64,000 nucleotides of DNA from an uncultured bacterium (GTDB lineage: Bacteria; Fidelibacterota; Marinisomatia; Marinisomatales; UBA1611): NCBI GenBank assembly GCA_965660855.1, contig CBFIBM010000003.1, positions 86,382 through 150,381 of the forward strand, read 5' to 3'. A program made the position numbers and the translations under genes. Positions 1,759 through 58,298 of this stretch are shown one piece after another. Position 1 is the first letter of the stretch. Every line of letters begins with the position of its first letter. The notes below the pieces were generated by a model. It saw only the letters and a list, made by a program, of their open reading frames with translations, did no database searches and had not been told where the DNA came from.

Positions 1759-3147
1759 ATGAAAAATTACATTACCCTATTCAGTTTAATAACTATAGTT
1801 AGTTCTGAACCAGGAGACTTAGTTGAATATAATTTTCAAAATAGAGTTCCAGTAACCTCGATAAATAACATTATTAGTAGTCTTGCTAATTCTCTTGGTT
1901 TTAATTCTTTTGATTTGAATTATTCAATTAATATATATGATATTCATTATGAATCTATAAATGTTGAGGGTAGCTTGGATACTTTATCAGGATTGATATG
2001 TATCCCAGAATCTAATACTAAATCATTTCCGATTTTAAGTTATCAACATGGCACTCAAATACTTGATTCTTCTGCACCATCAATTGTAGGAGTAAGCCTA
2101 TCTGGAATATATAATAATTTTGAAACTACTTTAATTGGTTTGATTACAGCATCATCGGGTTTTATATCTTTGCTTCCTGATTACGAAGGTCTGGGAAATA
2201 CTGAAAGGTTTCATCCTTATATTGTTGGTGAATCTTATGGTAAATCTTTGGTAAATATGATCCGTGCATCAAAAAAATTTTCCAAAGAAATAAATGGTGC
2301 CCAAAAATTTCAAAGTAATAATCAATTATTTTTACTGGGCTATTCAGAAGGAGGATATGCTACTCTTGCGGCCCAAAAAGATATTGAACTTAATTTTTTT
2401 GACGAGTTCCAAATTACAGCCTCTTTTCCAATGGCGGGACCATATGACCTTTCGGGCACAATGGTTGACTATTTTTTATCTGATCCTGATTACTCACAAC
2501 CATACTATGTACCATATGTATTGACTAGTTATTTATGGACTTATGAGGGGTTGGATGTCGATTTTTCTGATTACTTTACTCCATTTTGGGCTGAAAACCT
2601 TCCTATTCTTTATGATGGTAGTCATTCCTCCAGTGAAATAAATTCAATGATGCCTAATAACCCACTTGATATTTTATTACCTGAGGTATTGGAAGAATTT
2701 CAGAATAATCAGGATCACTTTTTTAGGCAAACGTTGCAAGAAAATACTCTTTTGGATTGGACTCCATTAAGTCCTACATTTTTTTATCATGGTTTAGGTG
2801 ATGATATAATACCTTATCAAAATAGCCAGGCTGTGTATAATATATTTACAGAAAATGGTGCTTCTAATGTAAACCTAATACTCTTTCCAGAAGTTCTAGG
2901 TGGTCACTCTGAGGTCGCAATAACGTGTTTATTATCAGGGTTTGAAACTGCTTTAGATTATCAAATCATAAATAATAAAGGAGATGTAAATATTGATGGC
3001 AACATAACTATTTTAGATCTAACAATAGTGATATCTCATCTGTTTGATGAAACAAATTTTTTAGACCTTGAGTATTGGGCTGCAGATGTAAATTTTGATA
3101 ATAATATATCTTTATTTGATATTTTGCTTTTAGCAGATAGTTTATAA
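1759..3147 (+). CDS. secreted alpha/beta-hydrolase (lipase-like) with C-terminal type-I dockerin module
   Basis: ATG at 1759 gives a signal peptide (MKNYITLFSLITIVSS). Nucleophile elbow GYSEGG. The C-terminus (2980-3144) has two EF-hand-like dockerin repeats, GDVNIDGNITILDLTIV and ADVNFDNNISLFDILLL. The track start at 1717 overlaps the previous gene and is unlikely. Confidence 0.7.
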   Translation: MKNYITLFSLITIVSSEPGDLVEYNFQNRVPVTSINNIISSLANSLGFNSFDLNYSINIYDIHYESINVEGSLDTLSGLICIPESNTKSFPILSYQHGTQILDSSAPSIVGVSLSGIYNNFETTLIGLITASSGFISLLPDYEGLGNTERFHPYIVGESYGKSLVNMIRASKKFSKEINGAQKFQSNNQLFLLGYSEGGYATLAAQKDIELNFFDEFQITASFPMAGPYDLSGTMVDYFLSDPDYSQPYYVPYVLTSYLWTYEGLDVDFSDYFTPFWAENLPILYDGSHSSSEINSMMPNNPLDILLPEVLEEFQNNQDHFFRQTLQENTLLDWTPLSPTFFYHGLGDDIIPYQNSQAVYNIFTENGASNVNLILFPEVLGGHSEVAITCLLSGFETALDYQIINNKGDVNIDGNITILDLTIVISHLFDETNFLDLEYWAADVNFDNNISLFDILLLADSL

Positions 3148-4034: not shown

Positions 4035-4035
4035 A

Positions 4036-8403: not shown

Positions 8404-8408
8404 TTATC

Positions 8409-38655: not shown

Positions 38656-41600
38656 ATGATCTCGATGAGAAAATATTTATTCAAATTTTTAATTGCAATT
38701 CTCCCCGCAAGTACGGTTTTATCAAACGTGATAATATCATTGGGAGATGTTGATGTCCAAGGTTATACTAATGAAATTATTGTGCCTGTAACTCTTGAAA
38801 ATCCAAATAGTACAGTTGGTGGATTTCAATTTGATTTTTCAACAAATGATGAGATCTTAACCATATCAGGAGTTTCTGCTATTGATTCAGAAAACTTTTC
38901 ATCTGACTATAATATTTTAAATAATGGAGATACTAGAGTGGTCTTCTTCACGATATCAGGTGATGGTATTGAATCAGGTAACGCTGGTACAGTCGTTAAT
39001 TTACACTTTGATGGATCAGACATCTTATCAGGATTTTTTAGTCTTGATGCATTTAATCTTACTGTTAGCGATGAGGATGGGACTATCGTAAATAGTCAAA
39101 TAAATGATGGATCCATAACTATCGGGACGGTTGTCTCAATGAGTGCAACATCTGATTCCGGAGATATAAATGAGCAAGTTGTAATCGATATTAATCTTAA
39201 TAATTCTGGTTTAGTTGGTGGTTTGCAATTTGATATTATAGATACACCCAATTACTTATCCGTGATTGGGTTATCTACTACTGACCGCTCAGAAGGATTT
39301 ACAATTGAATATAATGAACTCTCAGATGGCTTAACTAGAGTTTTAATGTTTAGTCCTGAAAACCAAAATATCGAGATTGGATCTGGTTCAATAGCTTCGC
39401 TACAAATGTTGATAGCTGAAAATGCATACAATTCAAACGTTGGAGTTAACTTTGAGAATGTTACAATTACTGACCCAATTGGAGGAATTTATTTTACAGA
39501 AAGTGCAGACTCAGGAACTGTAACGGTTACCCCTGGTTATATAGAAGAACCTCATAACCTGCAAGCTCAAGATGGTATGGATGCACAAGTTCTACTTAGT
39601 TGGGATGCTCCTTATGGGCCAATACCTCCAAATTTTGAAGAAGATTTCGAAGCAGGTTCAATTCCTGAGAATTGGAATTTAACTACAAATTCATCACAAG
39701 GATGGTTTATTACTCAAGATGGCTCAAGTGACTTTTGGTCAATACCTGCACATTCTTGGTATATGTGCTCAAATGATGATATGGCTGATGATGATGGGTC
39801 TGTAGATTATCTTATTATGCCTCCTCTTAACGTGAGTGGAGCAGAGAATATTGCACTTAATTTTGCATCCTATTATGATGGTGCGTATGGACAGTCTGCT
39901 CATATCGCGGTAAGCACAGATGGATCAAATTTCACGGAAGTAGCTGTACTCGATGCCGCAGCTGAATGGGTCATGGAAACTGTTGATTTATCTGAATTTT
40001 CTGGTGTACCAAATTTATATATTGCATTTCATTCAAATGATAATGGTGCATGGGCGTCAGGATGGGCTGTTGATGATGTTCTAGTATCCTTCGCTCTAAG
40101 AGATTCAGAGCGTTTTTTACACTACAACTTAACTGAATTTGGACAATGGGCTATGGATGCTTCAAAAGAAGATGTCCTTTCTCAATATGGGGGAGGTATT
40201 CCGTATAGCATGAAGGTTGACTTGAATAATCCGAATATTAATACAAGTAGACCTGTTACAATAGATGCATATAAGGTATATAAATCATTGAACAATAATT
40301 CAGATTTTGAAGAGGTTGCAGAAGTAGATGGATCTTTAACAACATATCTTGACGATGATGTTATTAATAGTACAATCTACTACTACTATGTTACAGCTAT
40401 TTATCCTGATGGCTCTGAATCAGGTCCAACAAATACAATCTCCGCAACCCCAGTTGAGTGGGTTGAGCTTTCATTAGATAATGGATATTCCCTGTCAGGG
40501 CAGATGGACACACTTGACTTTTACATAAATAATGAAAGTGATCTAGGTTTATTTTATTTTGAAATAATGGACTATCCCAATGTTTTGAATGGTCTAAACA
40601 TACTTTCAACTGAGAGAACTGAATCTTGGGCTTTAGAAATTGCAGACCAAGGAGATGGAACAATTGCAATTACTGGGATTAGTATCGGTGAGCCTCTTTT
40701 ACCAGGAAATGGACCAGTTTGTAGAGCTATTTTATACCCTGATGCTGAAGAAGAAATGGTTGTAAACCTTTCTTTTACTAGTGGCACTTCAATTCAAGAC
40801 GTTAATTACATTGATTTAAATTGGACTGCCGAAGGAGGCATATATGAAGTTGGTATAGAGACTCAGTATATTAACTTATATGGCGGATATGCTCTCTCAG
40901 GAGAAGAAACAGCTGGTTCAGTTTTCATGGAGACAACACAACCTGTTTACGCTATCGAATTTGATATCTTAGCAGATCCACCTTTTATTACTGGTACAGA
41001 TATTAATTTTAGTGAACTTCTAAATTTAGAAAATTGGACTGTATCAGGGTCGGATTTAGGTATTGGTTATAGAGTTACAGCTTATGATAATACTTTATCT
41101 AACCCAATAAGTCCTGGAGTCCGACACCTTGCAGATATTAATTATAATGTTTTAGATCAAATTCCTGAAGCTACCATTGTTAATATATCTGTCTCTGATC
41201 CAATTTTAGCAGACATGAATAATCTCTCTATGGTCACAGAAACAACTCCACATGCATTTTATATTGGTACTCCTCCAGCGGGGTGTACAATTGAAAATGC
41301 AACAGGACAATTAATACCCGGCGGTACAGGAGTATTTGAAATCCATATGGAGAATACAGAAACAATTAATATTTTAGAGTTTGAAATACAAGATATGCCA
41401 AACAATATGGCAGTAACAAATATTACTGGTGTAGGTAGGTTTGAAGATGGAACAATCGATGGTGGATCTGGAGAAACAGATGAAGGAAATATCTACTTCT
41501 TAGGATATGATTTTGCTACAGCAATTGAACCTGGAAGCGGAGCTATTCTCGAGATCGAAGTTGTATTCAATGAAAACATTAATAATTCATCAATTGTTTT

Positions 41601-41994
41601 TATGATAAATACAATTTCTGCGGGAGATGTGAATGCGGTCCCAGTTACGATTTTAGCTGATAATTTTGGGCAGTTCTCAGGATACTTAAATACAATATCT
41701 ACAGGACCAGTTCCACAAGATTTCCAATTAAATCAGAACTATCCAAACCCATTTAATCCTAGTACAATTATTAGTTATAGCTTACCATACAAGTCAGATG
41801 TGAAGCTGAATGTTTATGATATGAATGGTAAAAGAGTAAATTCATTAGTTAATCAAACTCAAGAAGCTGGCACACATAACATCTCATGGAGAGCGATAGA
41901 CTTTAGAGGAAACTCAATAAGTGCAGGCGTCTATTTATATAAATTAGAAGCTGGTGGAAAAGTATTTACAGAAAAAATGGTATATATGAAATAA
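38656..41994 (+). CDS. giant secreted scaffold-like protein: multiple cohesin-like modules, MAM/choice-of-anchor-J-like and FN3-like modules, type-A T9SS C-terminal sorting domain
   Basis: ATG 38656 follows GGAGG (38646-38650). Repeated modules follow the pattern ...EIIVPVTLENPNSTVGGFQFDF...TRVVFF...GTVVNLHF (also GGLQFDII, LFYFEIMD, YAIEFDIL, ILEFEIQD). The C-terminal domain at 41716-41991 reads QNYPNPFNPSTIISYSLP...VYDMNGKRV...GVYLYKL. Confidence 0.65.
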   Translation: MISMRKYLFKFLIAILPASTVLSNVIISLGDVDVQGYTNEIIVPVTLENPNSTVGGFQFDFSTNDEILTISGVSAIDSENFSSDYNILNNGDTRVVFFTISGDGIESGNAGTVVNLHFDGSDILSGFFSLDAFNLTVSDEDGTIVNSQINDGSITIGTVVSMSATSDSGDINEQVVIDINLNNSGLVGGLQFDIIDTPNYLSVIGLSTTDRSEGFTIEYNELSDGLTRVLMFSPENQNIEIGSGSIASLQMLIAENAYNSNVGVNFENVTITDPIGGIYFTESADSGTVTVTPGYIEEPHNLQAQDGMDAQVLLSWDAPYGPIPPNFEEDFEAGSIPENWNLTTNSSQGWFITQDGSSDFWSIPAHSWYMCSNDDMADDDGSVDYLIMPPLNVSGAENIALNFASYYDGAYGQSAHIAVSTDGSNFTEVAVLDAAAEWVMETVDLSEFSGVPNLYIAFHSNDNGAWASGWAVDDVLVSFALRDSERFLHYNLTEFGQWAMDASKEDVLSQYGGGIPYSMKVDLNNPNINTSRPVTIDAYKVYKSLNNNSDFEEVAEVDGSLTTYLDDDVINSTIYYYYVTAIYPDGSESGPTNTISATPVEWVELSLDNGYSLSGQMDTLDFYINNESDLGLFYFEIMDYPNVLNGLNILSTERTESWALEIADQGDGTIAITGISIGEPLLPGNGPVCRAILYPDAEEEMVVNLSFTSGTSIQDVNYIDLNWTAEGGIYEVGIETQYINLYGGYALSGEETAGSVFMETTQPVYAIEFDILADPPFITGTDINFSELLNLENWTVSGSDLGIGYRVTAYDNTLSNPISPGVRHLADINYNVLDQIPEATIVNISVSDPILADMNNLSMVTETTPHAFYIGTPPAGCTIENATGQLIPGGTGVFEIHMENTETINILEFEIQDMPNNMAVTNITGVGRFEDGTIDGGSGETDEGNIYFLGYDFATAIEPGSGAILEIEVVFNENINNSSIVFMINTISAGDVNAVPVTILADNFGQFSGYLNTISTGPVPQDFQLNQNYPNPFNPSTIISYSLPYKSDVKLNVYDMNGKRVNSLVNQTQEAGTHNISWRAIDFRGNSISAGVYLYKLEAGGKVFTEKMVYMK

Positions 41995-42175: not shown

Positions 42176-45100
42176 TTATTTTAAGTGGATCATTTTTCTT
42201 GAAGAGCTAAACTCTTTTGAATAAATAGATAGGAAATACATTCCAGATGGAACTGGTTTTCCATTATCATTTAATCCATTCCATATGATTTTGTGTTGTC
42301 CAGCTTGTTTAAATTCCTTTAAAGGTTTAAAAACCTCATTACCAGTTATATCATGAATTGCTATCTCAATATACGATGCTAATGGAAGGTCGTACTGAAT
42401 AGTTGTAGTAGGGTTAAATGGATTTGGGTAATTCTGATATAATTCAAATTTGGTGGGTAGCCCATTATAGTCATTTTGATTGAGTAAATTATAATGAATA
42501 ATAAGAGAATACCTTGAAGTTCCAATGATAGGATATGGCTTTAATATTTCGCTAGTAGTTGGATTAAAGCTTCCTCTTGGTTCGATAAAAAGATTTAATC
42601 CACTTGTATTACTAATATCCAATTCATTTCCTATTAAATTGTCTAATAAACTTATTGATATATGGTCAGGTAAACTTAGTTCTAGTAATGACATTGTTGC
42701 ATTTGTTTCATTTGTTACAAAATATCCAGATGAATCAATATTTAAAAATAGTATATCTAATGGAATTGTAATGGATTCTTCATGGTGTAGGGGTAAGTGA
42801 TTTATCTTTAAAGGAATATCATTTGATAAGGTCATAGCAACCAACCGTGGTGAAATCTCTAAAGGTAATAATTTTTTTCCATCTGAAATGTCAGAGTTTA
42901 TATTCCCGTTTATCCCAAATGTTAGATAGACTTCATCGATATAATTGTTCGATGAAAAACTTAAGGTAAGTTTACCCGAGTCCTCATGGTCATTCCTTTG
43001 CCTAATTAATGTACTAGAGCCAGTCGCAATATCTTCTTCTTCAATTGTAAAACTACCTATCCCACCACTTGCTTGAATCCAAAAACCTTGGAATGGAGCA
43101 ATCAAACCATTACTTAAGTCACCGGATGATCCATTCCACATTTTCCAACTTGCAGTAGAATTATCCCAAATCGAAATAACATTTGAAAGATTATTTTTGG
43201 AAATATCATTCCAGCTTATTGTTTTAGTAAATGGATTACCTGCTAAGTAATAATTATCTTGCGGAATAGAACTTTTTGAAACACTTCCAGTATTCTGAGT
43301 GCCAGATAAAAAAAGATCAACAGGAAGATCATTGTTTCCATCAAAATCTATATCATTAAAAACATAAATGAGGAAACCTTGTCCTGCATTTAAAGACTGA
43401 GTTGATATATTCGTAATAGGTGTCCAGCTTTGCTGAGCAAGGTTTAATATCCATATATTTGCATTACCATCCGTAGCATCTCCACCAGATATTCCTTGAA
43501 TCCAAAGCTCATCTAACAAGTCTTCAAATATAGTCCCTGAGACTGGACTACTCAACATTCTAAAACCAGAATTACCACTTATAGTTATATTATGGAGAGG
43601 AATCCAAGTATTTCCAAAAGTAGAACTTAAATCCCAATCATGTCCAGCAGTCCAATTAATATTCCCATCCTCATAAGCGCCAATATCTGGTGAACTACCA
43701 TTATTAGTGTAGGTATCTGTTATTCCAGGTATAGAAATTCCAGCATCAATAAGTGGAGAGCTGGCTGCTGGAGAGAAATCACTATTTGATGTATCAGTTA
43801 AGACACTATTTAATGTTACACTCTCATTATATCCATTCCAATTATTGCTGTATGTTCCAAAATCAATAGTTACATTATTGGTTCTGTGATTTGAAATTTT
43901 GTCTGCAGCATTATTTTTAATGATAGATGTAGAATGATCATCGTTATTAATTTTTAGAACAATAATATCGTTTTTACTTCCGGAGTTTAAAACAGTATTG
44001 TTATATATTTTGTGATTATTTCCTTTTACCATAATCCCGCCACTTTCACAGTTCCACGCTAAATTATGATGCATTATTCCATTTGTTCCGTCAGCAGATC
44101 CGCTATGATCAAATCTCGCACCATACTTCTCTGTATCATGAAGCCAGTTGAACCTACATATAGCCCCATCTTGCTGGTCTTCCATAAATTGAATCATAGA
44201 ACCATCACTTTGTAAGTGGCCTGTATCATACAGATTGTTATATTCTATCAATCCAGCATTCCCAATCATTACAGTAGCAGAACCACCAGTTTTATGAACC
44301 GTATTTTTTCGAAAAACATTGGACGTACCATTCATGCGAATAGTCAGCATGATACTGCTATTATCTGCTACGGAATAATCAATTTTATTAAAATAGCAAT
44401 TATCTAATGTATCTGTTCCACCCCACATCTCTACAGCAGTTCCATCTGTATTCCTGAAAGCACAATTTCTAATAGTACTACCAGAACTACCTGAAGCAAA
44501 TTTTGTCATTTCTGGCTCTGTGTCCACAATTCGTAGCATTCGTTTTGAACAACTAGGATACATGAAGTTACACCCATAAACTAAACAATTATCACCGTTG
44601 GAGAAGTAGACTGTTGTTGCAAAAAACTCTAAATTTTTAATTTGAACATATTTTGACCCTGTAATAGTAAATGCATATGATTGAATTTTTCCTCTAAACT
44701 CTAGTTTATTTGGATTAATTCCATTTTCAGTATAATAATATAGAGAGTCTTGATTGTTGTGGGTATCATACCACCATTCACCACTTTGATCAAGAAATTC
44801 ACGTCGGCCTTCTAAATAATAGTAGTGATGTTTTGTTTTCCAATTTGGAACGGTTGAATAGTTAAAGGTACCCCCTGAGTGATTTGTCACAATCCTAGAC
44901 CATGTTCTAAAAGATCCTAAATTAAGTATAGCAATTGCTTGTTTATTACTCTCATCAAGATCAAAGCCAGTAGAGCTAAGATTAATATTTGTTCCTTGTG
45001 AGTTTGTAAAAGGTTTATCTATAATTGTCCCATTAGAATATGCATTTTCATCATCATCTATTGTTCCTTTTGCCCAAAAATTATCATTGTCCCAAATTGT

Positions 45101-45556
45101 ATCATCATCAAACTTAGCATTTGGCCAACGAGCCATAATTTGTTCTTCCCAATTCACAAATAGTTGCCAAATATCCGATGTTAATTTTGTTCTCCATATA
45201 TTTGAAGATCCAACTTGAGTCCATGATGAGTTTATTGGTATGGTTCCATCCATTATTACTCTTTCATTATTGTAGTTTGTAAATATTATTGCAGACCCTG
45301 AAGAACCATTTAAATTATCGATAGTCACACTTTCATGATATCGACCTTGGCGTATATAACATATATCACCCGAATTCATTACGCTTGCTGCTTTGGAGAC
45401 AGTTTTAAAAGGCTTTGCAAGGGTAGTTCCATTATTCTCATCGTCACCATAAGAGATTGCAACGTAATAGTCAGTAGCTGATAGATGGGTGACGGCTACA
45501 GTAATATAAATAAGTTTTTGTATTGCTGGAGTCAATTTTCTAATCAAAAAAGACAT
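42176..45556 (-). CDS. giant secreted right-handed parallel beta-helix protein with type-A T9SS C-terminal sorting domain
   Basis: The N-terminus DYYVAISYGDDENNGTTLAKPFKTVSKAA..GDICYIRQGRYHE is typical of pectate-lyase-fold proteins. Repeated N/G-rich beta-helix rungs follow. The C-terminus (about 42179-42440) reads QNYPNPFNPTTTIQYDLP...IHDITGNEV...GMYFLSI. Confidence 0.65.
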   Translation of the reverse strand: MSFLIRKLTPAIQKLIYITVAVTHLSATDYYVAISYGDDENNGTTLAKPFKTVSKAASVMNSGDICYIRQGRYHESVTIDNLNGSSGSAIIFTNYNNERVIMDGTIPINSSWTQVGSSNIWRTKLTSDIWQLFVNWEEQIMARWPNAKFDDDTIWDNDNFWAKGTIDDDENAYSNGTIIDKPFTNSQGTNINLSSTGFDLDESNKQAIAILNLGSFRTWSRIVTNHSGGTFNYSTVPNWKTKHHYYYLEGRREFLDQSGEWWYDTHNNQDSLYYYTENGINPNKLEFRGKIQSYAFTITGSKYVQIKNLEFFATTVYFSNGDNCLVYGCNFMYPSCSKRMLRIVDTEPEMTKFASGSSGSTIRNCAFRNTDGTAVEMWGGTDTLDNCYFNKIDYSVADNSSIMLTIRMNGTSNVFRKNTVHKTGGSATVMIGNAGLIEYNNLYDTGHLQSDGSMIQFMEDQQDGAICRFNWLHDTEKYGARFDHSGSADGTNGIMHHNLAWNCESGGIMVKGNNHKIYNNTVLNSGSKNDIIVLKINNDDHSTSIIKNNAADKISNHRTNNVTIDFGTYSNNWNGYNESVTLNSVLTDTSNSDFSPAASSPLIDAGISIPGITDTYTNNGSSPDIGAYEDGNINWTAGHDWDLSSTFGNTWIPLHNITISGNSGFRMLSSPVSGTIFEDLLDELWIQGISGGDATDGNANIWILNLAQQSWTPITNISTQSLNAGQGFLIYVFNDIDFDGNNDLPVDLFLSGTQNTGSVSKSSIPQDNYYLAGNPFTKTISWNDISKNNLSNVISIWDNSTASWKMWNGSSGDLSNGLIAPFQGFWIQASGGIGSFTIEEEDIATGSSTLIRQRNDHEDSGKLTLSFSSNNYIDEVYLTFGINGNINSDISDGKKLLPLEISPRLVAMTLSNDIPLKINHLPLHHEESITIPLDILFLNIDSSGYFVTNETNATMSLLELSLPDHISISLLDNLIGNELDISNTSGLNLFIEPRGSFNPTTSEILKPYPIIGTSRYSLIIHYNLLNQNDYNGLPTKFELYQNYPNPFNPTTTIQYDLPLASYIEIAIHDITGNEVFKPLKEFKQAGQHKIIWNGLNDNGKPVPSGMYFLSIYSKEFSSSRKMIHLK

Positions 45557-48209: not shown

Positions 48210-49568
48210 ATGAAAGTAAAATATCTAATTTTATTCGTCCTTTACTTACTCATCAGTTCCTGTGAGGATGTTGAAGTTGCATACCCTGGAAATAATCAAT
48301 CTACCAGAGCTGTTGCTCCAAATGGTACTGCTGACTGGTTAATTGCGCAAGTGAATGGCGTTGGGCAATTACCCGAAAATTCAGCTGCAGGGATTGATAT
48401 AGCAACCTTGAATGCTGAAGATGAAAATCCAGATGATGAGTTTTCTTATTCGATTGCAAGTCAGACTATTGGCAATACTTCAGGTGATTATTTCAGAATT
48501 GAGAAAGAAGAAGATGGAGATTTTAAACTTGTTTTAAATAATAGTAGTATTAACTATGAATCTCTAAGCGGTGTAAAGGTAGTTACGATTAATATTTCAG
48601 TTGAGGATGATAGTCCTGATAAATTAAAAAGTGATTTTTCATTGGAAGTGGAAATAATTAATGTGAATGAGTCCCCTTATTTTATTAACCTAAGCTCAAT
48701 TACCCCTTTCGCTGATGAATATGTTGAATTTTCTTCTGGAAATTTAATTTGGGATGATATAGACGAAGGTGATAATCCAATTTTAAATACACAAGGTCCT
48801 GGCTGGTTAAATATAAGTAATGAAGGTTTGTTTAGTGGGTCACCCTCATCTTCAGATGTGGGTGTTAACTCATTTGTTTTGACCATTTCTGATGACGATA
48901 ATCCACCGATCTCTGTAAGTGAGGAAGTAAATATTGAAGTAAGAGAGAATGTCGCTCCAATTTTTGAAAACGCGCCCTCATCACTATCAATTAAGGTAGG
49001 TTGTTATGATACAAATGAAAGCATTGTAAATCTAAATTGGCGAGATCCAAATAATGATGCTCCATATTTTTCTGGTAATGATTTGGTTTCATTTAGTTTT
49101 AATGAAAATATCTCCTGGTTAAATATTTCTGATGATGGAAATATATTTTGTGTTGATGCTCCTCAAAATACAGATGCGGCTGTTTCTGAAATTGAAATTA
49201 CCATTGCTGACAATAGGCCGAGTAATCCAAAAAGCACAACAAAATCATTTGATGTTACAGTAATAGCAAATGATGCACCAAGTTTCACAAACCTTAATGG
49301 CTTTGCAGATGAAATGGATTCAGGTACAGAATATATCTTTGAATTGGAATATGATGATCCAAATGACGATCTTCTCGCATTTGAATTGAAGTTTGCTATT
49401 GGTAATAATGTATTTGATTCTGATCAATTAGGGTGGGTTAGTATTGATAATTCAGGAGAAATCACTCTAAGTCCAACATCGAGTAATGCTGGAGATTATA
49501 CGATCAGTTTTATTATTTCAGATGAATGCTTTGAAGTTTCAGAAGAAAAATCTTTTACAATTAGATAA
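48210..49568 (+). CDS. lipoprotein with one cadherin-like repeat and several He_PIG/dystroglycan-type Ig-like repeats
   Basis: Lipobox LLISSC. Cadherin-like LPENSAAGIDIATLNAEDENPDDEFSYSI...EVEIINVNESPYF. The Ig-like module WLNISNEGLFSGSPSSSDVGVNSFVLTISD is repeated. Confidence 0.6.
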   Translation: MKVKYLILFVLYLLISSCEDVEVAYPGNNQSTRAVAPNGTADWLIAQVNGVGQLPENSAAGIDIATLNAEDENPDDEFSYSIASQTIGNTSGDYFRIEKEEDGDFKLVLNNSSINYESLSGVKVVTINISVEDDSPDKLKSDFSLEVEIINVNESPYFINLSSITPFADEYVEFSSGNLIWDDIDEGDNPILNTQGPGWLNISNEGLFSGSPSSSDVGVNSFVLTISDDDNPPISVSEEVNIEVRENVAPIFENAPSSLSIKVGCYDTNESIVNLNWRDPNNDAPYFSGNDLVSFSFNENISWLNISDDGNIFCVDAPQNTDAAVSEIEITIADNRPSNPKSTTKSFDVTVIANDAPSFTNLNGFADEMDSGTEYIFELEYDDPNDDLLAFELKFAIGNNVFDSDQLGWVSIDNSGEITLSPTSSNAGDYTISFIISDECFEVSEEKSFTIR

Positions 49569-49588
49569 ATTAAAAAAAAGGAATTAAC

Positions 49589-49987
49589 ATGAAGTTGAGA
49601 TCAGATATTAATGCAATGACCGCCCTTGTTTATGGAGGAGCAGCATTCTTACTTGTTATCGTAGGGTTTAGGTCTATTCTAGCAACATTAGGAGATCATG
49701 TTGGTGTGATGACTTACTTATCTATTGCTGCACTTGGTTTAGAATTTGTACTTTTAATTTTATACGCAAAGGCTATTTATAACTTGGGTCCAGATTCAGG
49801 TGAAAGTAAAGTCAGCGCTGGGGCAAGTGTTGCGAACATGGATAGTAAAGAGATATCAGAGTTAACCAAAGCAGTAATAAAAGTTGCTGAAATGGGCGAG
49901 GGTTTAGCAAATCTCTCAAATGGGAAAGTTCGTGATGAAGTGAAAAAAGAGGTTAATGATATTCTTTCGAAAGCAATTAAGAAATAG
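49589..49987 (+). CDS. 132-aa two-TM inner-membrane protein, GldL/PorL-like (tentative)
   Basis: ALVYGGAAFLLVIVGF...GVMTYLSIAALGLEFVLLILYA parallels the remembered GldL N-terminus FAYGMGAAVVIVGALF...GTVMLSIGLLTEALIFALSAF, including the TM2 Glu (E52, codon 49742-49744). The cytoplasmic tail is short and helical. Confidence 0.45.
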   Translation: MKLRSDINAMTALVYGGAAFLLVIVGFRSILATLGDHVGVMTYLSIAALGLEFVLLILYAKAIYNLGPDSGESKVSAGASVANMDSKEISELTKAVIKVAEMGEGLANLSNGKVRDEVKKEVNDILSKAIKK

Positions 49988-49996
49988 GTCTATAAA

Positions 49997-51436
49997 ATGA
50001 AAAAAGTAGAAGTCTATTTTCTAATCAATCTTGGTGCTATACTTAGCCTGTTTGCTATTGAAGGTGAGCTGTCTATTTATATGCAAAGACAAGATGATAT
50101 TTTAAAGAATGTTGCTCAAGATAAGCTTCAAACGCTTGTTGAAATAAGCAATGTTGAATCAAATTATGATGATTCCGATTATTACAGGTTATTTTTCGAT
50201 GTTGAAGGACAATATGAACAAGGTTCAATCGAGTTTAATCCTAGTTTTACTACTCCAATTGTAGAGGTTGATGGCGACTCGATAAAAGTAGATGATTCAT
50301 ATGTATGGGAATTGGATTCTGTTAATATCGAGCCTTATACAGAAGAGGGGGATAAAAATAGATATGTAGCTAAGGTCAAGCTTGCATCCATTGAGGATAA
50401 CTATCTAAATCAACCCTTTGATATAAACCTAGGTGTGAATTTCATTCCCGCTATTGACACTGTTACTTACGCAAAATGGACAAAGGCGTTTGGAGATTAC
50501 ACAGTTACAGACAAATTGTTGAAGATAATCGATGATGAAGTTTCCTCAAAAGGAAGCTTTGAAATGGAGAGGGAATTTGACACCCCGGTAACACTGATTT
50601 ATATGGATGGTCAGCAAGCAGAGTTTTTTGTTTTGTTTGATAAAGAAAAGTATACTGTGTTAAGAGGTTTGGATTGGGAGATTCCGTTCAGTATTGGTGG
50701 GGTGAATTCTGAAGCTGATTTTGATATTGAGATATCAAGTGGCAAAGATTTAGTAAAAGAGTCTCAACCAGGGTTGCCAAGATCATTTATCAAAGGTAAA
50801 GGTACGAGTGATGGAACTGTTGAAATTGTTGGGCTGAGGAAAAGAGATAAAAAATCTAGTATTACTAAGGCTAAGATAGTAGTAGTGGATCCACAGTATA
50901 GTTCTCCAACTGAAGACAAAGAAATTTACATTGGAGAGCAGTATGTTTTTGATAGCAGAGTTAAAGATGTAGACAGAGATAGAATTTCTGTGAAAATTTC
51001 TGGATCTGCGGTAAACTCAAAAACTTTTAACTCTTACGAAGCAAAATTAAAACCTAAAAGTCGAGGAAAAGTTAAATTCCAAACTTTTGTTGATGGGAAA
51101 GCTGTAAAAGGATTATTTCGTGAAGTTTCTGTAAAGAAAATTCCACCGCCTAAGCTTGAGTTTAAGCGTTTAGGAAAAGGATCAAATAATATGATGGTTA
51201 CAGTTACAACATATGGAAATAATAATGGTAAAAAAGCTGTAGTCCCTCTCTCTGGTATTTATGGAAAACTAGACGAAGAGCAAGCTGAAAAACGGGTTGG
51301 AAATCGAAGAGTTGTTAAATACAGCTTTGAAATGGACGAGCCACAATTTGGAACAACCACTGAGATAAGAATAAAAGTTGTGGATAAATATAAAGCAGAA
51401 ACTGTCTCAGACAATGAATTTGAATATTATGATTAA
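49997..51436 (+). CDS. bitopic protein (N-terminal TM plus ~440-aa periplasmic Ig-like domains), GldM/PorM-like (tentative)
   Basis: Start is 9 nt after the GldL-like gene. The TM YFLINLGAILSLFAIEGEL can be compared with GldM MINLMYLVFIAMLALNVS. The late motif FREVSVKKIPPPKLEF resembles the GldM C-terminal F.V..iP.P motif. Confidence 0.4.
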   Translation: MKKVEVYFLINLGAILSLFAIEGELSIYMQRQDDILKNVAQDKLQTLVEISNVESNYDDSDYYRLFFDVEGQYEQGSIEFNPSFTTPIVEVDGDSIKVDDSYVWELDSVNIEPYTEEGDKNRYVAKVKLASIEDNYLNQPFDINLGVNFIPAIDTVTYAKWTKAFGDYTVTDKLLKIIDDEVSSKGSFEMEREFDTPVTLIYMDGQQAEFFVLFDKEKYTVLRGLDWEIPFSIGGVNSEADFDIEISSGKDLVKESQPGLPRSFIKGKGTSDGTVEIVGLRKRDKKSSITKAKIVVVDPQYSSPTEDKEIYIGEQYVFDSRVKDVDRDRISVKISGSAVNSKTFNSYEAKLKPKSRGKVKFQTFVDGKAVKGLFREVSVKKIPPPKLEFKRLGKGSNNMMVTVTTYGNNNGKKAVVPLSGIYGKLDEEQAEKRVGNRRVVKYSFEMDEPQFGTTTEIRIKVVDKYKAETVSDNEFEYYD

Positions 51437-53174
51437 AAAACACCATATTTCTACTCTCTTATTTTTAAGTAGCACTCTATTATTTGGTCAAAAATCAATC
51501 TACTGGGAAGTAGCTGATCCTGTTGTGAACAGCGAGTTCATCGAATCTTATATTAATAGATTGATTGAGGTTGATAAATTTGAGCAAAATACCATTCAAG
51601 CTTCTCATACAATCATTGTCCAAATGGATATTGAAAATGATAAAATTAGTTTAGAAAAACTCAAAGCTAAAAATTATCAAATGGGAGAGTACCAATCTTT
51701 TGATATGGAAGAAATTGAAAAGATGGATCCTGTCCAGATTAATACATTAATGTCGCGAGAGTACAAGTGGAAAGATGTAAGTCGAAGAGATTTGTCTGAG
51801 TTAGAAGCTTTTAGTACTGTAGATAATGTATTTCAAGAGCGTAGTTTTAAAGATGCTAGAGATGCATTTTGGTGGTCGAATTCTCAAATAAGCGTCAGTA
51901 CTGCTCAGAAGGTTTTTATTAGACAGAAAAGTAATAGTCTTGCATTTCGTTTGGAGAAGGGTTTTCTTGACCTTGGACTGTCAAGAGAATTGTCTGAAAA
52001 TTTGATTTTAGGCATTTCAAATGATGTTGTGAGCTCATATCTCATTATACCTGGAGCAACTAATTCTACAGCTATGGGTATTGGGCATCCTTTAGAAGGA
52101 AATTTAGGCTTTGGCTTTAAGTTTGACACTCATACTCTTGGTGGTCAGGTTAACTATATGGATGTCGATGGTCAGGATTATGACTATTCAAAAGTTTTTA
52201 GCAGAAAACATTTGGTGATCCCATCAAGTAGTGGACTATTATATTGGAGCAATACTTTCCAAATTAATAGAAATGTTGATTCCAAGTATGGTAATAAAGT
52301 TAAAGATCAAAAAAAAGAAAAAGCCAAAGCAGAAAAAGCAATCTCGAAATCTAGAGAATGGAATACTGGATCAGACAAATTTAATGGAGTATTTCAGGTA
52401 ATGGAAGAAGAGACTGTTACTTTTATTGTTGATAGAGATAATAAAGCACACAAGTTAGCAGAAAAGGGTAAAGAGTGGACGACAAAATCAGGAAGTGTTG
52501 TTAAAGCAGTTTTAACAAATAGAAACCCCAAAGAGATTACCCTGTTAAGAGCAAAGGATAATTTTAAAATTGTACTAAAATTAAGAGATCTATCCGAAGA
52601 GGATCAATCTTTTGTTGAAAGTTTAAAGTGGGATGGTAAAAAAACAAAAACTCTATCTATTGAGCAACTAAATCCCTCCGATCAACAGCTTATTAGAGCA
52701 GCGACAGGGACTGTGAAGGCAAGAAGCGGTAAAGGTCGTGAGCTAAAAGTCAGTGAACCATTTGCTTCAATGCGGTTGAAAGCAGGTCTTGCATTTACTC
52801 AATTTGTTCACGCTAGAGTTTTTGAAGATAATTTAGTATCGGTAATTGATCGTACGTCTGGCTCTAATTCATTAGGGTTTTATGCAAAAGTTGAGGGAGT
52901 GACAGATAGTAAAAGCTCCAAAGGGTATATCCAAGTAAATGTAGCAGGTAATGGATTTAAGGCATACGGGTTGGGTTTAGAGCATAATGTATGGAAAATG
53001 GTTAATTTAGGAGTGGATTTGACTCTTTACCCTGATAACAGTTTTATCGAATTTAAAAATGATCGAAATAATCCAGAAGATAAATGGAGATGGTATCCAG
53101 GGAGTCGCCCAGATGAAAATGGAAAGGGCGGAGGAACTCTTTTCTTTTCTCCTTATATTACTGTGAACTTCTAA
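51429..53174 (+). CDS. secreted probable outer-membrane beta-barrel protein with internal tandem SHD1-like domains
   Basis: ATG 51429 (ATGA-type overlap with the upstream stop) gives signal peptide MIKKHHISTLLFLSSTLLFGQ. C-terminal beta-signal LFFSPYITVNF. 52353-52625 encodes REWNTGSDKFNGVF... and KEWTTKSGSVVKAVL...IVLKLRDLSEEDQSFVESL. Confidence 0.5.
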   Translation: MIKKHHISTLLFLSSTLLFGQKSIYWEVADPVVNSEFIESYINRLIEVDKFEQNTIQASHTIIVQMDIENDKISLEKLKAKNYQMGEYQSFDMEEIEKMDPVQINTLMSREYKWKDVSRRDLSELEAFSTVDNVFQERSFKDARDAFWWSNSQISVSTAQKVFIRQKSNSLAFRLEKGFLDLGLSRELSENLILGISNDVVSSYLIIPGATNSTAMGIGHPLEGNLGFGFKFDTHTLGGQVNYMDVDGQDYDYSKVFSRKHLVIPSSSGLLYWSNTFQINRNVDSKYGNKVKDQKKEKAKAEKAISKSREWNTGSDKFNGVFQVMEEETVTFIVDRDNKAHKLAEKGKEWTTKSGSVVKAVLTNRNPKEITLLRAKDNFKIVLKLRDLSEEDQSFVESLKWDGKKTKTLSIEQLNPSDQQLIRAATGTVKARSGKGRELKVSEPFASMRLKAGLAFTQFVHARVFEDNLVSVIDRTSGSNSLGFYAKVEGVTDSKSSKGYIQVNVAGNGFKAYGLGLEHNVWKMVNLGVDLTLYPDNSFIEFKNDRNNPEDKWRWYPGSRPDENGKGGGTLFFSPYITVNF

Positions 53175-53187
53175 AAACGGAACTTAT

Positions 53188-55506
53188 ATGACTCTAGTAT
53201 TTAAATATTTTACAATTTTAGCTTTTTCATCAACGCTTATTTTTAGTCAAAATGAGTTAAAATTAAAAAAAGACAAAGCGCAGGTTACCGAGGATGAAAG
53301 CATTAAAATAGATGTCTTAAAAAATGACGGAATTAAAGATAAAAGTAACCTAATAATTAAGATTGAAAAACAAGCTCAAAAAGGAGTTGCCGTACTATCT
53401 GGGAAAATGATCGAGTATACCCCCAATAGTAATGAAAGTGGATCAGATAGTTTTACATACTCAGTTGATATTGGTACTGGAGCTGGTACAGCTGAAGTCT
53501 CTGTCAAAATTAAATCAGTAAATGATGAACCCACCGGACTTAGTCTTTCTAGTAAGACAATTAAAGAAAATAAACCTGAAGGGACATTAATTGGTAAGCT
53601 AATTGTTGATGATCCAGATATGAATGATACTTTCAACTTTGGTCTATCTAGAGATAGTAAAGCAGATTTTCGAATTGATGGTGAAAAGTTACTTTCAAAA
53701 AGATCATTTGATTATGAGGAGCAAAGTAAATATAATTTATCAATACAAGTATCAGACGCAGCAGGTGAATCTAATGTTTTTGATATAGCAGTGAATATTG
53801 AAAATGAAAATGAAGCTCCAAAACTCATTGGGGATAAAGACTTAAACATTAATCACCCGGAAGATGCGGGAAAAATTGTGGCAAGAATTCAAGTAGAAGA
53901 CCCTGATTCTGACCAATCGGGTCTTAAATACAAGCTTACTAAGAGTCTAGATAAGGAACATTTTAAAATCACTCGTAGTGGCGATATCTCATTTTTAAAA
54001 GAGCCGGATTTTGAAAACCCAAAAGATAAAAATAAAAATAATACTTATAATGTTTCATACAAAGTAACAGATAGTAAAGACCCTTCCCTTTCCATTGAAG
54101 GAGAAGTTACTATTAATCTTCTTGATGCTGAGGAAACAGAAGTTAAGGCTTTGGACAAAAGGAAATTTATTGCTTGGTCTGTAGATCATCAACCATATCA
54201 CATTTTGATGGAAGAAGCCGTAGAGGATTATTTGAAATTAAAATATTCTGATGATTCTATTGATGAGGCAGTTGATGATGGATATGGTGCTAGTATTCAG
54301 GAACTAAAGCCAACAGATCAAATTATTATTGTTCAGCAAAAAGGTAATAATAGTGAAATTTATGAAATTTGGTATGGTAACGGATTAGACTATACCATAA
54401 TCGATAGAGAAAAAGTGGATTGGATTTTTAGTCAGGATATACAATCTGTTCTTGTCACAAAAGATCAATATCTTAATAGTGATTCAGAGACAGTATTTCA
54501 TAAAAGTGAAAGTGATAGATTGATGGCTAGCTATGGAAATGAATTTTCTGTCTGGCACTCCAATAATTTCAAAATGTCACTTGCTTCCTTTTCTATGAGA
54601 TCGAATTTATTGCAATACGCATCTAATATGCGTGTAGGAAATAAATTAATAGGAATTCCAGGTGAGCTTGGTGCAGGGGCAGAATTTGGTATTGCGACAC
54701 AACGATCAGAATTTGGTTTTCGATTGCCAATTTCATTTGATTTTGCAACATCTAATTCTGATGGTATTGATTTACCAGAAGCTGATAATTTAGGGTTGTA
54801 TGCACGTGGAAATATTGAAAATTTATTTTCAACTAATACTGATTTTCATGGATTGATTGGGTTTTCTTTTTATTCACCAAGTGTTGGTAATGTTTTAAGT
54901 TCCCCTAAAGATTTAGAAAGTGACAGTACAAAGTGGGGGGCTATAAACGACTCCACTGAAAATATTAATATTTTAGATAGCTATGCTTTATTTGGTGCGA
55001 CTGTTCAAGTTCCAGTAAATGCACCTTTTATTGGTCGCTTAACCGCAACACCGGGTATTCATTACATAAAGATAGCCCACCGTTTAAAAGATAAGCGCTA
55101 TTCAGCAGATGATGACTTGTATGAAAGGCTTTATTATAATCAAATGTTTGAGCAAAATGATAGTACTTTGACTTTCAATTCAGAAAAATTAAATGATGAA
55201 AATGAATCTTTTACATCTCTATCATCTTTTTACTTACGATTTGATCTACTAGGGAAAATAGGGGAAAAGCCTAACGTAATTGAGAGATTATCATTCTTGG
55301 ATTTCATTAAAATTTCCAATGTCCCTTTTTATGAGGTTTCATTACAGTTTATTCCCGGTTTTAATACAATCAGCACACTGAATGTGAATTTCTCAGACCA
55401 ATTTGGCATGTCTTTGACACGTTTGTCTTCCGATGATGCATTAAAAGGAAATTGGATGCCAGAATCAAAACTTTGGTTTGGATTTAATTATCGTGCTAAT
55501 TTTTAA
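53188..55506 (+). CDS. secreted protein: bacterial cadherin-like repeats fused to a probable C-terminal outer-membrane beta-barrel
   Basis: Signal peptide. IDVLKNDG...YTPNSNESGSDSFTYSV. Two cadherin repeats end in VNDEP and ENEAP. The C-terminal ~440 aa show alternating strands and end in LWFGFNYRANF. Confidence 0.5.
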   Translation: MTLVFKYFTILAFSSTLIFSQNELKLKKDKAQVTEDESIKIDVLKNDGIKDKSNLIIKIEKQAQKGVAVLSGKMIEYTPNSNESGSDSFTYSVDIGTGAGTAEVSVKIKSVNDEPTGLSLSSKTIKENKPEGTLIGKLIVDDPDMNDTFNFGLSRDSKADFRIDGEKLLSKRSFDYEEQSKYNLSIQVSDAAGESNVFDIAVNIENENEAPKLIGDKDLNINHPEDAGKIVARIQVEDPDSDQSGLKYKLTKSLDKEHFKITRSGDISFLKEPDFENPKDKNKNNTYNVSYKVTDSKDPSLSIEGEVTINLLDAEETEVKALDKRKFIAWSVDHQPYHILMEEAVEDYLKLKYSDDSIDEAVDDGYGASIQELKPTDQIIIVQQKGNNSEIYEIWYGNGLDYTIIDREKVDWIFSQDIQSVLVTKDQYLNSDSETVFHKSESDRLMASYGNEFSVWHSNNFKMSLASFSMRSNLLQYASNMRVGNKLIGIPGELGAGAEFGIATQRSEFGFRLPISFDFATSNSDGIDLPEADNLGLYARGNIENLFSTNTDFHGLIGFSFYSPSVGNVLSSPKDLESDSTKWGAINDSTENINILDSYALFGATVQVPVNAPFIGRLTATPGIHYIKIAHRLKDKRYSADDDLYERLYYNQMFEQNDSTLTFNSEKLNDENESFTSLSSFYLRFDLLGKIGEKPNVIERLSFLDFIKISNVPFYEVSLQFIPGFNTISTLNVNFSDQFGMSLTRLSSDDALKGNWMPESKLWFGFNYRANF

Positions 55507-55577
55507 ATCCTAGATTCTTTATTTGAGGACTAAAGTAAAGAGAATTTTTTTTAATTAAAACCTGGACAAAGAACTAA

Positions 55578-58250: not shown

Positions 58251-58298
58251 TTAAATTTTTAATTCATTTATTATGAAACACTTCTTAAGGAGTTCATT

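Follow-up and report, generated by a model that had tools for sequence, protein, structure and literature searches.

A five-cohesin protein with a type IX secretion domain and a dockerin-tagged lipase in Marinimicrobia: parts of a putative surface display system

Marinimicrobia (SAR406, now called Fidelibacterota) abound in the interior of the ocean and have hardly been cultured at all, and their attack on particulate or polymeric organic matter has largely been inferred from gene lists. In a 64-kb stretch of their DNA (the whole of which is referred to as the window), one gene encodes a large modular protein ending in a type IX secretion system (T9SS) sorting domain, and a second one encodes a secreted hydrolase with a C-terminal dockerin. 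A first-pass annotation had suggested that the two belong to a cohesin-dockerin display system on the cell surface. The locus raises the question whether the modular protein could serve as a scaffold for dockerin-bearing partners and, more specifically, by which route a dockerin enzyme that lacks a T9SS C-terminal domain (CTD) would be exported.

Architecture of the scaffold protein and its five cohesins

The scaffold gene (38656-41994, forward strand) starts with an ATG at 38656, stops at 41992-41994 and translates into 1112 aa. A longer form starting with TTG at 38644 is possible, but the ATG is preferred, since orthologs have 1111-1116 aa and one of them (P0001) is 100% identical over 1112 aa. 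A signal peptide is followed by two cohesins, a choice-of-anchor-J/MAM-like domain, an FN3-like domain, three further cohesins and a type-A T9SS CTD. The features, with the evidence for each in brackets, are:

38656..38724, + strand: signal peptide, Sec-type, MISMRKYLFKFLIAILPASTVLS, aa 1-23 (sequence inspection)
38725..39135, + strand: cohesin M1, aa 24-160 (Pfam Cohesin, module scanned alone)
39136..39543, + strand: cohesin M2, aa 161-296 (Pfam Cohesin in an ortholog; HMM links)
39544..39633, + strand: FN3-like domain, first strands, aa 297-326 (Pfam fn3, sub-threshold)
39634..40095, + strand: choice-of-anchor J/MAM-like domain, aa 327-480 (NCBIfam NF038128)
40096..40452, + strand: linker and rest of the FN3-like domain, aa 481-599 (Pfam fn3 in orthologs, sub-threshold)
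40453..40863, + strand: cohesin M3, aa 600-736 (AlphaFold2 fold, Foldseek, hhalign)
40864..41271, + strand: cohesin M4, aa 737-872 (Pfam Cohesin in an ortholog; hhalign)
41272..41691, + strand: cohesin M5, aa 873-1012 (AlphaFold2 fold, Foldseek, hhalign)
41740..41994, + strand: type-A T9SS CTD and stop codon, aa 1029-1112 (TIGR04183, Pfam)

The signal peptide was assigned by inspection only: its n-region is basic, its core is hydrophobic, and the residues preceding aa 24 are small. It is the least conserved segment of the scaffold among orthologs (mean column identity 0.44). The most conserved segment is the start of the FN3-like domain at aa 297-326 (mean column identity 0.90). For this domain, named in the first-pass annotation, matches to Pfam fn3 are present and all of them stay below threshold: aa 298-323 align to model positions 2-29 (14-15 bits), and in orthologs, 22 of 26 of which match fn3 (best E 2.9e-4), aa 532-598 align to positions 22-80. 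The central domain matches NF038128 (choice-of-anchor J) at aa 327-477 with 45 bits (cutoff 30), aligned to positions 2-162 of the 162 in the model; a weak MAM match is found in five orthologs (best E 6.9e-5), and the domain likely binds a ligand or particles. The CTD is recognized by TIGR04183 (42.9 bits, cutoff 23, aa 1029-1109) as well as by the Pfam models Por_Secre_tail (PF18962, 31.3 bits, cutoff 27) and FlgD_ig (35.9 bits); a phmmer search with the full-length scaffold against PDB sequences matched nothing but this FlgD-like CTD. Scans with Pfam and NCBIfam detected no CBM in the scaffold.

All five modules are confirmed as cohesins, M3 and M5 by fold and remote homology only. Cohesin was absent at E<=1 from the Pfam scan of the full-length scaffold, and the match of M1 to PF00963 emerged when this module was scanned alone (35.8 bits, E 1.1e-8, cutoff 24.1). 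Twelve of the 26 full-length orthologs match Pfam Cohesin (best E 4e-14). In ortholog P0076, M1 (aa 25-156) spans positions 1-139 of the model, with 53.4 bits for the whole protein over three stretches; M2 is matched in P0045 at aa 165-274; and M4 of P0110 (aa 763-868) covers positions 22-132, with 38.8 bits for the whole protein over two stretches. Modules M2-M5 of the window have no Pfam Cohesin match of their own, and M3 and M5 are without one in all 26 orthologs, too. The cohesin status of M1, M2 and M4 is based on sequence profiles, and the fold evidence comes from models of M3 and M5. The AlphaFold2 model of M5 (pLDDT 89.5, pTM 0.83) has nine strands, and each of its best 39 Foldseek matches in the PDB is a cohesin (E about 1e-7, TM about 0.72). 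The model of M3, of moderate confidence (pLDDT 68), likewise has nine strands, and its best nine matches are all cohesins, 2jh2, 1g1k, 2xdh and 5nrm among them (E 1e-4 to 7e-4, TM 0.5-0.65). Neither the M3 nor the M5 profile retrieved a cohesin from PDB sequences; fold comparison alone succeeded.

The modules are also linked to each other. Within the scaffold, an HMM of M2 matches M1 (4.7e-10), M5 (1.9e-9) and M3 (4.7e-5), and comparison of ortholog profiles by hhalign connects M1-M2 (98%), M2-M5 (97%), M2-M3 (91%), M3-M5 (90%), M2-M4 (89%) and M1-M4 (86.5%), with negative controls against the FN3, choice-of-anchor-J and CTD segments all at <=2.5%. BLAST of the scaffold against itself revealed no internal repeats, since the modules have diverged too far for it and need profile methods: pairwise identity among M1-M5 is 11-30% (30% for M1 vs. 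M2), and each module shares a mean identity of 54-77% with its own orthologs. The cohesin-like motifs quoted in the first-pass annotation are all present in the translation, and its calls of cohesins, choice-of-anchor-J/MAM-like domain and type-A CTD agree with Pfam, fold comparison, NF038128 and TIGR04183, the cohesins numbering five. It had also allowed for modules that fit neither cohesin profiles nor cohesin folds; instead, M1 and the orthologs match Pfam Cohesin, and M3 and M5 have cohesin folds.

The dockerin-tagged lipase and its genomic setting

The candidate cargo is encoded upstream of the scaffold on the same strand:

1759..2976, + strand: signal peptide and LIP-family alpha/beta-hydrolase body, candidate cargo (PF03583)
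2977..3147, + strand: type-I dockerin with two Ca-binding loops, DVNIDGNITILD and DVNFDNNISLFD, and stop codon (Pfam Dockerin_1)

The body belongs to the LIP family (PF03583, 60.2 bits), and none of 19 orthologs departs from its GYSEGG nucleophile motif or from the candidate Asp and His residues. The start at MKNY agrees with that of a 462-aa ortholog (P0124), which is 100% identical. A two-loop dockerin at the end of a lipase-like hydrolase had been read correctly from the sequence: Dockerin_1 (PF00404) is matched above cutoff (37.9 bits, cutoff 22.9, nt 2977-3135, model positions 1-53), and both loops carry D/N at positions 1, 3, 5, and 12. Moreover, a profile built from 15 ortholog dockerins matches the solved dockerins 2y3n_B, 4fl4_A, 2ccl_B and 1ohz_B (E 4e-7 to 3e-6) and can be aligned over its full length with 1ohz_B and 2ccl_B. 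The dockerin is kept in 19 of 19 aligned Marinimicrobia lipase orthologs, down to an identity of 55%, with invariant Ca-ligand positions, an indication that a binding function has been preserved. When the 75-aa dockerin served as the query for homologs, three fragments of lipase orthologs came back and nothing else, and an exhaustive dockerin-profile search found 2516 proteins at E<=1e-3, mostly multi-dockerin proteins. In the window, this dockerin is the sole one, compared to five cohesins, and no cohesin gene besides the scaffold was found there. The lipase has a Sec signal peptide, and neither a T9SS CTD nor a lipoprotein cysteine; the missing CTD leaves its outer-membrane route to a surface scaffold in a diderm cell unexplained.

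The two genes lie 35 kb apart, with genes for ATP synthase, ParAB, SecDF and AspRS, among others, between them, and do not form an operon. Both are conserved Marinimicrobia genes embedded among housekeeping genes. Full-length scaffold orthologs share 52-100% identity (1111-1117 aa), and every source-named match is from Candidatus Marinimicrobia. The scaffold gene adjoins genes for SecA and a Cys/Met PLP enzyme in the window and on a 1.22-Mb contig; downstream synteny with the latter was rejected, as its 597-aa and 452-aa neighbors are unrelated to the 609-aa and 452-aa ORFs of the window. Scaffold (P0060) and lipase (P0132) occur together on one 80.9-kb contig of the MAG CMG55. Many genes for surface proteins with cadherin, He_PIG, NHL and beta-helix domains are located downstream of the scaffold, and an Omp85 protein is encoded in the window as well. 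Genes for T9SS machinery (SprA, PorV, PorU, GldK-N) were not found in the window; another protein with a CTD, encoded at 42176-45556, points to a T9SS in use.

A profile search of genome contigs with the scaffold alignment yielded no true ortholog, as the generic CTD motif N[YF]PNPFNP dominated its matches. As a by-product, it identified a 2312-aa T9SS protein in an FCB-group MAG (L002), which is 27% identical to the scaffold over aa 18-1112 and comparable in architecture, with Cleaved_Adhesin (124 bits), MAM-like domains and at least three cohesins. Its gene lies 1 kb, tail to tail, from that of a signal-peptide protein with a C-terminal Dockerin_1. Dockerin_1 and a T9SS CTD are combined within single proteins of two further FCB-group genomes, L045 (Bacteroidetes, one protein) and L050 (Gemmatimonadota, two).

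Proposed docking and competing explanations

The favored reading, to which we assign a probability of about one in two, is that the protein is a T9SS-anchored, non-cellulosomal scaffoldin of Marinimicrobia, the five cohesins of which hold dockerin-bearing partners, with the lipase as a candidate. The scaffold would cross the inner membrane via Sec; the T9SS would recognize the type-A CTD and pass the protein through the outer membrane, where it would most likely stay attached to the cell surface and display five cohesins together with the central choice-of-anchor-J/MAM-like adhesin domain. Type-A CTD cargo can be released instead of anchored in some Bacteroidota, and the CTD alone is therefore no proof of surface attachment. 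The central domain might take the role that the CBM has in cellulosomes, probably by binding particles or polymers. Each cohesin would bind, depending on calcium, a dockerin carried by a secreted protein; within the window, the LIP-family lipase/esterase at 1759-3147 is the single candidate for such a partner. As the cohesins are so different from each other and each of them is conserved among orthologs, they probably accommodate partners that differ from position to position and form a fixed set, unlike the interchangeable enzyme loading of clostridial scaffoldins. Docking is partly supported by the conservation of the dockerin, by the co-occurrence of both genes on one contig in CMG55 and in the window, and by the neighboring pair in L002. 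Of the display system proposed in the first-pass annotation, the parts are thus in place as regards domains, conservation and co-occurrence, whereas docking of the lipase is a prediction, against which the distance of 35 kb, the single dockerin and the missing CTD count.

It is possible, if rather doubtful, that the scaffold is a T9SS-exported adhesin, in which modules of cohesin fold act as stalk or spacer or in general ligand binding and bind no dockerin, while the dockerin of the lipase serves otherwise, e.g., in calcium-dependent stabilization or with a different partner. The adhesin-like central domain, the abundance of surface-protein genes downstream, the lack of linkage between dockerin and scaffold genes and the Pfam-negative modules (M2-M5 in the window, M3 and M5 in every ortholog) would fit this explanation, as would the presence of cohesin-like folds in non-docking proteins: YcnI and the CLIPPER adhesin domain also appear in the Foldseek lists of M3 and M5. 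However, spacer domains of adhesins are usually near-identical tandem repeats, whereas the five modules diverged anciently and are yet conserved among orthologs, which fits five distinct binding specificities. Moreover, a conserved dockerin accompanies the scaffold both here and on the CMG55 contig, and the cohesin-T9SS protein of L002 has a dockerin protein as its neighbor.

An unlikely variant is a true cohesin-dockerin hub for which the lipase is not cargo: the partners would be encoded elsewhere in the genome, possibly with a T9SS domain of their own, and the lipase would dock to another cohesin protein. Proteins such as those of L045 and L050 would indeed need no help to reach the surface, whereas the lipase lacks a CTD, and five divergent cohesins imply several partners outside the window; however, the window holds no further cohesin or dockerin gene, and the genomes are probably small, making a second cohesin system less likely. 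Least probable, and quite unlikely, is a hitchhiking route, in which the lipase folds in the periplasm, binds a scaffold cohesin there and leaves through the T9SS translocon as a passenger, so that the dockerin would be its means of crossing the outer membrane and five position-specific cohesins would set a fixed set of exported enzymes; if true, this would be a new mode of T9SS cargo recruitment and a new function for cohesin-dockerin pairs.

Relation to known systems and implications

The scaffoldin reading has a precedent in Candidatus Stygibacter (Cloacimonadota), for which a cohesin scaffold anchored through the T9SS, with dockerins on non-cellulolytic enzymes, was deduced from domain annotation only (Williams et al., 2021, Front Microbiol; PMC8542988). 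The scaffoldin-like protein of Stygibacter has 3755 aa, tandem cohesins, CBM2/CBM3 and a T9SS C-terminal domain, and dockerins are found on secreted GH18, GH57, and S8 and C25 peptidases (PMC8542988). Both cases concern FCB-group diderms in which a large non-catalytic protein carries cohesins in tandem and a T9SS CTD at its end, and in which dockerins are found on non-cellulolytic secreted enzymes. Unlike its counterpart, the scaffold described here comprises 1112 aa and has a choice-of-anchor-J/MAM-like domain instead of a CBM; the sole cargo candidate seen is a lipase/esterase, and the genes belong to Marinimicrobia/Fidelibacterota, as a conserved set among housekeeping genes.

With CipA of C. 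thermocellum and ScaA/ScaB of R. flavefaciens, the scaffold shares multiple cohesins on a non-catalytic secreted protein and, as predicted, a substrate-targeting module and a cell-anchoring device; the dockerin is of the type-I, two-loop kind of clostridial and ruminococcal systems, and the predicted folds of M3 and M5 superpose on the type-I cohesins of these. However, cellulosomes are a feature of Gram-positive bacteria, where SLH domains or sortase, not a T9SS, provide the anchoring, and they usually carry cohesin repeats of close similarity that take up many enzymes, in contrast to the five divergent ones here. Neither CBM3 nor a dockerin-bearing glycoside hydrolase was seen at this locus. 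The system may work like a cellulosome, but is not a cellulosome sensu stricto, as it has no CBM and the sole dockerin of the window is on a LIP-family hydrolase. Cohesin and dockerin modules outside cellulose degradation are known from Archaeoglobus fulgidus (2xdh) and from GH84C/GH33 of Clostridium perfringens (2jh2, 2vo8, 2w1n), all four structures being among the best fold matches of M3/M5; in these systems, an enzyme or a small protein typically bears just one cohesin, in contrast to a T9SS scaffold with five. T9SS adhesins of the gingipain hemagglutinin type, with Cleaved_Adhesin/MAM-like domains, resemble the scaffold in that a modular body of beta-sandwiches stands between a signal peptide and a type-A CTD, and the central domain of the scaffold is related to the MAM/Cleaved_Adhesin group. 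Unlike these adhesins, the scaffold has no protease domain, and its body is made of cohesins.

A cohesin scaffold exported by a T9SS is therefore of a kind already known, though unvalidated, since the 2021 report on Cloacimonadota, and is apparently unreported for Marinimicrobia: literature searches on Marinimicrobia in connection with dockerins, cohesins or type IX secretion gave no relevant result. If the favored reading is true, Marinimicrobia would be a second, independent phylum that combines the T9SS with cohesin-dockerin assembly. To our knowledge, none of the T9SS-linked cohesin-dockerin systems has been validated experimentally; the modules described here are small and easily expressed, which makes pairwise binding assays straightforward. 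For the organisms themselves, a scaffold that arranges defined secreted enzymes would, if true, provide a concrete mechanism for particle-associated hydrolysis, with little enzyme lost to diffusion.

Architecture of the scaffold and identity of its modules

The scaffold is encoded by a single long open reading frame on the + strand, which runs from TTG 38644 or ATG 38656 to the stop at 41992-41994 of the window. The ATG product of 1112 aa is 100% identical from end to end to one database protein of 1112 aa, and more than 100 full-length relatives have lengths of 1111-1117 aa; ATG 38656 was therefore taken as the start. The motifs quoted in the first-pass annotation are all found in the translation.

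Layout of the scaffold (amino acid positions)
aa 1-23, signal peptide
aa 24-160 (window 38725-39135), cohesin M1
aa 161-296, cohesin M2
aa 297-326, first part of FN3-like domain
aa 327-480, choice-of-anchor J / MAM-like domain
aa 481-599, linker and rest of FN3-like domain
aa 600-736, cohesin M3
aa 737-872, cohesin M4
aa 873-1012, cohesin M5
aa 1013-1028, linker
aa 1029-1112, T9SS C-terminal sorting domain (CTD)

Choice-of-anchor J (45 bits vs. a cutoff of 30, aa 327-477) and the type-A T9SS sorting domain TIGR04183 (42.9 bits vs. 23, aa 1029-1109), both claimed in the first-pass annotation, are confirmed by NCBIfam scores above the cutoffs. Two sub-threshold Pfam fn3 matches, at model positions 2-29 on aa 298-323 and 22-80 on aa 532-598, are complementary halves of one model with choice-of-anchor J between them, which suggests, at the level of sequence, that choice-of-anchor J is apparently inserted into an FN3 domain (aa 297-599, window 39544-40452). 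The 30-residue N-terminal FN3 piece is the best-conserved segment of the whole scaffold (column identity 0.90).

In a Pfam scan of the full-length scaffold, no Cohesin match appeared at E<=1, and only the C-terminal region of FlgD_ig and Por_Secre_tail was reported. Taken alone, this result would speak for modules that fail cohesin profiles or folds, the outcome that the first-pass annotation had named as fatal to its proposal; four independent tests were therefore applied. Among the aligned orthologs (n=26, 52-91% identical), 12 match Pfam Cohesin with a best E of 4e-14, and the matches are located on M1 (ortholog P0076 aa 25-156, model positions 1-139), M2 (P0045 aa 165-274) and M4 (P0110 aa 763-868). 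As an isolated 137-aa piece, M1 of the window itself matches Cohesin with 35.8 bits (E 1.1e-8). Profile-profile comparison of the module alignments connects M1-M2 (98%), M2-M5 (97%), M2-M3 (91%), M3-M5 (90%), M2-M4 (89%) and M1-M4 (86.5%), with all values <=2.5% against the FN3, choice-of-anchor-J or CTD segments, and the module HMMs cross-match solely within the scaffold, nowhere else in the window. Since M3 and M5 gave no sequence match to cohesins in any search, their folds were modelled. The best 39 PDB matches of the nine-stranded M5 model (pLDDT 89.5, pTM 0.83) are cohesins throughout (E ~1e-7, TM ~0.72), including C. acetobutylicum CohA2, C. thermocellum OlpC and CipA, C. cellulolyticum and A. 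fulgidus 2xdh; the best nine of the moderate M3 model (pLDDT 68) are likewise all cohesins (E 1e-4 to 7e-4, TM 0.5-0.65). Orthologs, isolated module, profile comparison and fold thus agree that the scaffold has five cohesin modules, where the first-pass annotation had proposed at least four to five, and the failure it had envisaged gives way to Cohesin matches and cohesin-like folds.

The M1 match is suppressed in the scan of all 1112 aa and becomes visible only with the module alone, and precomputed annotations of the orthologs are equally patchy for Cohesin. Domain censuses will therefore undercount cohesins in such proteins.

Cohesins of clostridial scaffoldins are near-identical repeats. 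The scaffold displays the opposite pattern: M1-M5 are 11-30% identical to each other, yet the mean identity of each module to its own orthologs is 54-77%, highest in M3 (77%), which suggests that the five cohesins may serve five different, fixed partners instead of being loaded at random. M5 contains an acidic, glycine-rich insertion (RFEDGTIDGGSGETDEGN; window 41440-41500, ~aa 929-948) between strands 4 and 5, which forms a short helix in the model, includes several invariant residues (R928, F929, G932, E940) and may be a metal-binding or partner-binding loop.

Genomic setting

All named matches to the scaffold and the lipase belong to ‘Candidatus Marinimicrobia’, except one ‘Fidelibacterota’. 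Marinimicrobia are the Gram-negative SAR406 or Marine Group A lineage, now called Fidelibacterota (PMC11652737). The window is ordinary chromosome, with an ATP synthase operon, ParAB, SecDF, SecA, AspRS, an Omp85 protein, thiolase and acyl-CoA dehydrogenase (ACAD).

Further features of the window
8409-9710, +, small Omp85/POTRA protein, 433 aa (Pfam, single POTRA match)
42176-45556, -, right-handed beta-helix protein, 1126 aa, with type-A T9SS CTD; convergent neighbour of the scaffold gene
48210-63443, +, series of large putative surface proteins (Pfam), comprising the next five lines
within it, +, He_PIG/cadherin protein, 452 aa
within it, +, two ORFs of 479 and 598 aa without Pfam match
within it, +, cadherin/Big_9 protein, 772 aa
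within it, +, NHL protein, 890 aa
within it, +, ORF of 1714 aa with odd sub-threshold matches only

The Omp85/POTRA protein confirms a diderm envelope and, because of its small size and single POTRA match, resembles a TamA- or TpsB-type transporter more than a full BamA. Directly upstream of the scaffold gene lies a gene for a Cys/Met PLP enzyme, and this upstream block (thiolase, ACAD, ..., SecA, Cys/Met enzyme, scaffold) is shared with a 1.22-Mb contig of a relative (ERZ28548091 north_1__contig_29310), whose scaffold ortholog is 61% identical. The genes downstream are not conserved between the two, which places the scaffold gene at the border of a variable, surface-protein-rich region. The beta-helix gene is missing at the corresponding position of the relative; weak matches to a GH141 insertion and choice-of-anchor Q make its product a candidate secreted polysaccharide lyase or hydrolase. 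None of the surface proteins at 48210-63443 has a T9SS CTD at E<=0.01.

The dockerin-bearing lipase and its putative docking

The lipase gene (1717/1759-3147, +) encodes 462-476 aa depending on the start; orthologs begin at the MKNY methionine (window 1759). Its description as a dockerin-tagged lipase holds: Pfam assigns the product to the LIP secretory-lipase family (60 bits) and places Dockerin_1 at the extreme C-terminus (37.9 bits), and a profile from 15 ortholog dockerins aligns with the solved type-I dockerins 2y3n_B, 4fl4_A, 2ccl_B and 1ohz_B (E 4e-7 to 3e-6). The dockerin (aa 405-462 of the 462-aa form) is kept in 19/19 aligned orthologs at identities down to 55%, with the invariant motif K-G-D...D...D...W..D...D; a functionless module would not persist in this way, and its retention counts in favor of pairing. 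The N-terminus bears a cleavable-looking signal peptide, whereas sequence, domain scan and ortholog alignment show no lipoprotein cysteine and no T9SS CTD.

With signals for both steps observed in its sequence, the scaffold would be exported by Sec first and then by the T9SS, and would probably be retained at the cell surface. T9SS type-A cargo of Bacteroidota can also be released. On the surface, the scaffold would present five cohesins and one adhesin-like domain; apart from the lipase, no candidate partner of the cohesins is visible in the window. That the scaffold is a T9SS-exported five-cohesin protein we hold with high confidence; for the whole chain, including a docked lipase, we estimate a probability of about 50%, and docking of this lipase on this scaffold is a tentative proposal with at best even odds.

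The domain identities on which the first-pass annotation based the pairing stand, and the pairing itself has evidence on both sides. The two proteins occur together in the window and also on one 80.9-kb contig of MAG CMG55 (CMG55_03840, CMG55_04130), which counts for it, as does an FCB-group MAG contig (L002, JAADGM010000080.1) found by a genome-contig scan with the scaffold alignment, a scan of no use as a census. L002 encodes at 133-7068 (+) a 2312-aa T9SS protein, 27% identical to scaffold aa 18-1112, with Cleaved_Adhesin (124 bits), MAM-like and Cohesin (41.8 bits) domains; the M1-M5 HMMs detect three or more modules in this protein, and tail to tail with it, at 1 kb distance, a 267-aa signal-peptide protein (8119-8922, -) ends in Dockerin_1 (37.8 bits). 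This is an independent genomic linkage of cohesin and dockerin modules in a T9SS setting. Against the pairing, the lipase gene lies 35 kb from the scaffold gene with no co-transcription, and the 64-kb window contains a single dockerin and a single cohesin protein. The scaffold might instead be an adhesin, its cohesin-fold modules having a structural role or binding ligands other than dockerins, which we consider rather unlikely beside the retained dockerin and the L002 linkage; that it is a genuine hub, but for dockerin proteins other than the lipase, appears improbable.

Docking of the lipase also leaves its passage across the outer membrane unaccounted for, since it has neither CTD nor lipoprotein cysteine, and this counts against the pairing. 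Among the other FCB-group genomes that the scan returned, Dockerin_1 and a T9SS CTD share one polypeptide in one Bacteroidetes protein (L045) and two Gemmatimonadota proteins (L050), a simpler route to the surface that is not the arrangement of the lipase. Speculatively, the CTD-less lipase might dock in the periplasm and hitchhike through the T9SS, a long shot that would be new if true.

The proteins on L045 (7940-10306) and L050 (10323-13307 and 17085-19835) combine dockerin and CTD with an SBBP propeller, or with Laminin_G_3 and PKD, and a Zixibacteria Ig-repeat protein (L039:2-2314) ends in a dockerin; judging from these, surface proteins related to the T9SS seem to carry dockerins recurrently throughout the FCB group. 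The L002 dockerin protein has a CxxCH motif (TCRDCH), a candidate haem-binding site; with a possible redox role for this protein, its dockerin is reminiscent of the cytochromes with dockerin tags that have been discussed in ANME archaea.

Relation to known cohesin-dockerin systems

Cohesin and dockerin modules outside cellulosomes have reportedly long been known, work by Peer and colleagues of 2009 being named in this regard. The closest precedent of the scaffold locus is the system of Ca. Stygibacter (Cloacimonadota), in which a 3755-aa scaffoldin-like protein combines tandem cohesins, CBM2/CBM3 and a T9SS CTD, and dockerins are borne by chitinase, amylase and peptidases; a cellulosome-like complex was inferred from annotation alone (Williams et al., 2021; PMC8542988). 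The window locus is a system of this kind from a different FCB phylum, but its scaffold is smaller (1112 vs. 3755 aa), an adhesin-type domain replaces the CBM, the cohesins are mutually divergent, and the visible cargo is a lipase. Because the window shows neither a CBM nor a glycoside hydrolase with a dockerin, as in a cellulosome strictly defined, we withhold that label; the locus is cellulosome-like, not a cellulosome. A literature search for dockerins, cohesins or type IX secretion in Marinimicrobia returned no report. The concept is not new, this kind of system being already known and experimentally unvalidated, and the docking itself is putative; the scaffold locus is nevertheless a solid lead that can be tested, and it comes from a marine phylum both abundant and uncultured.
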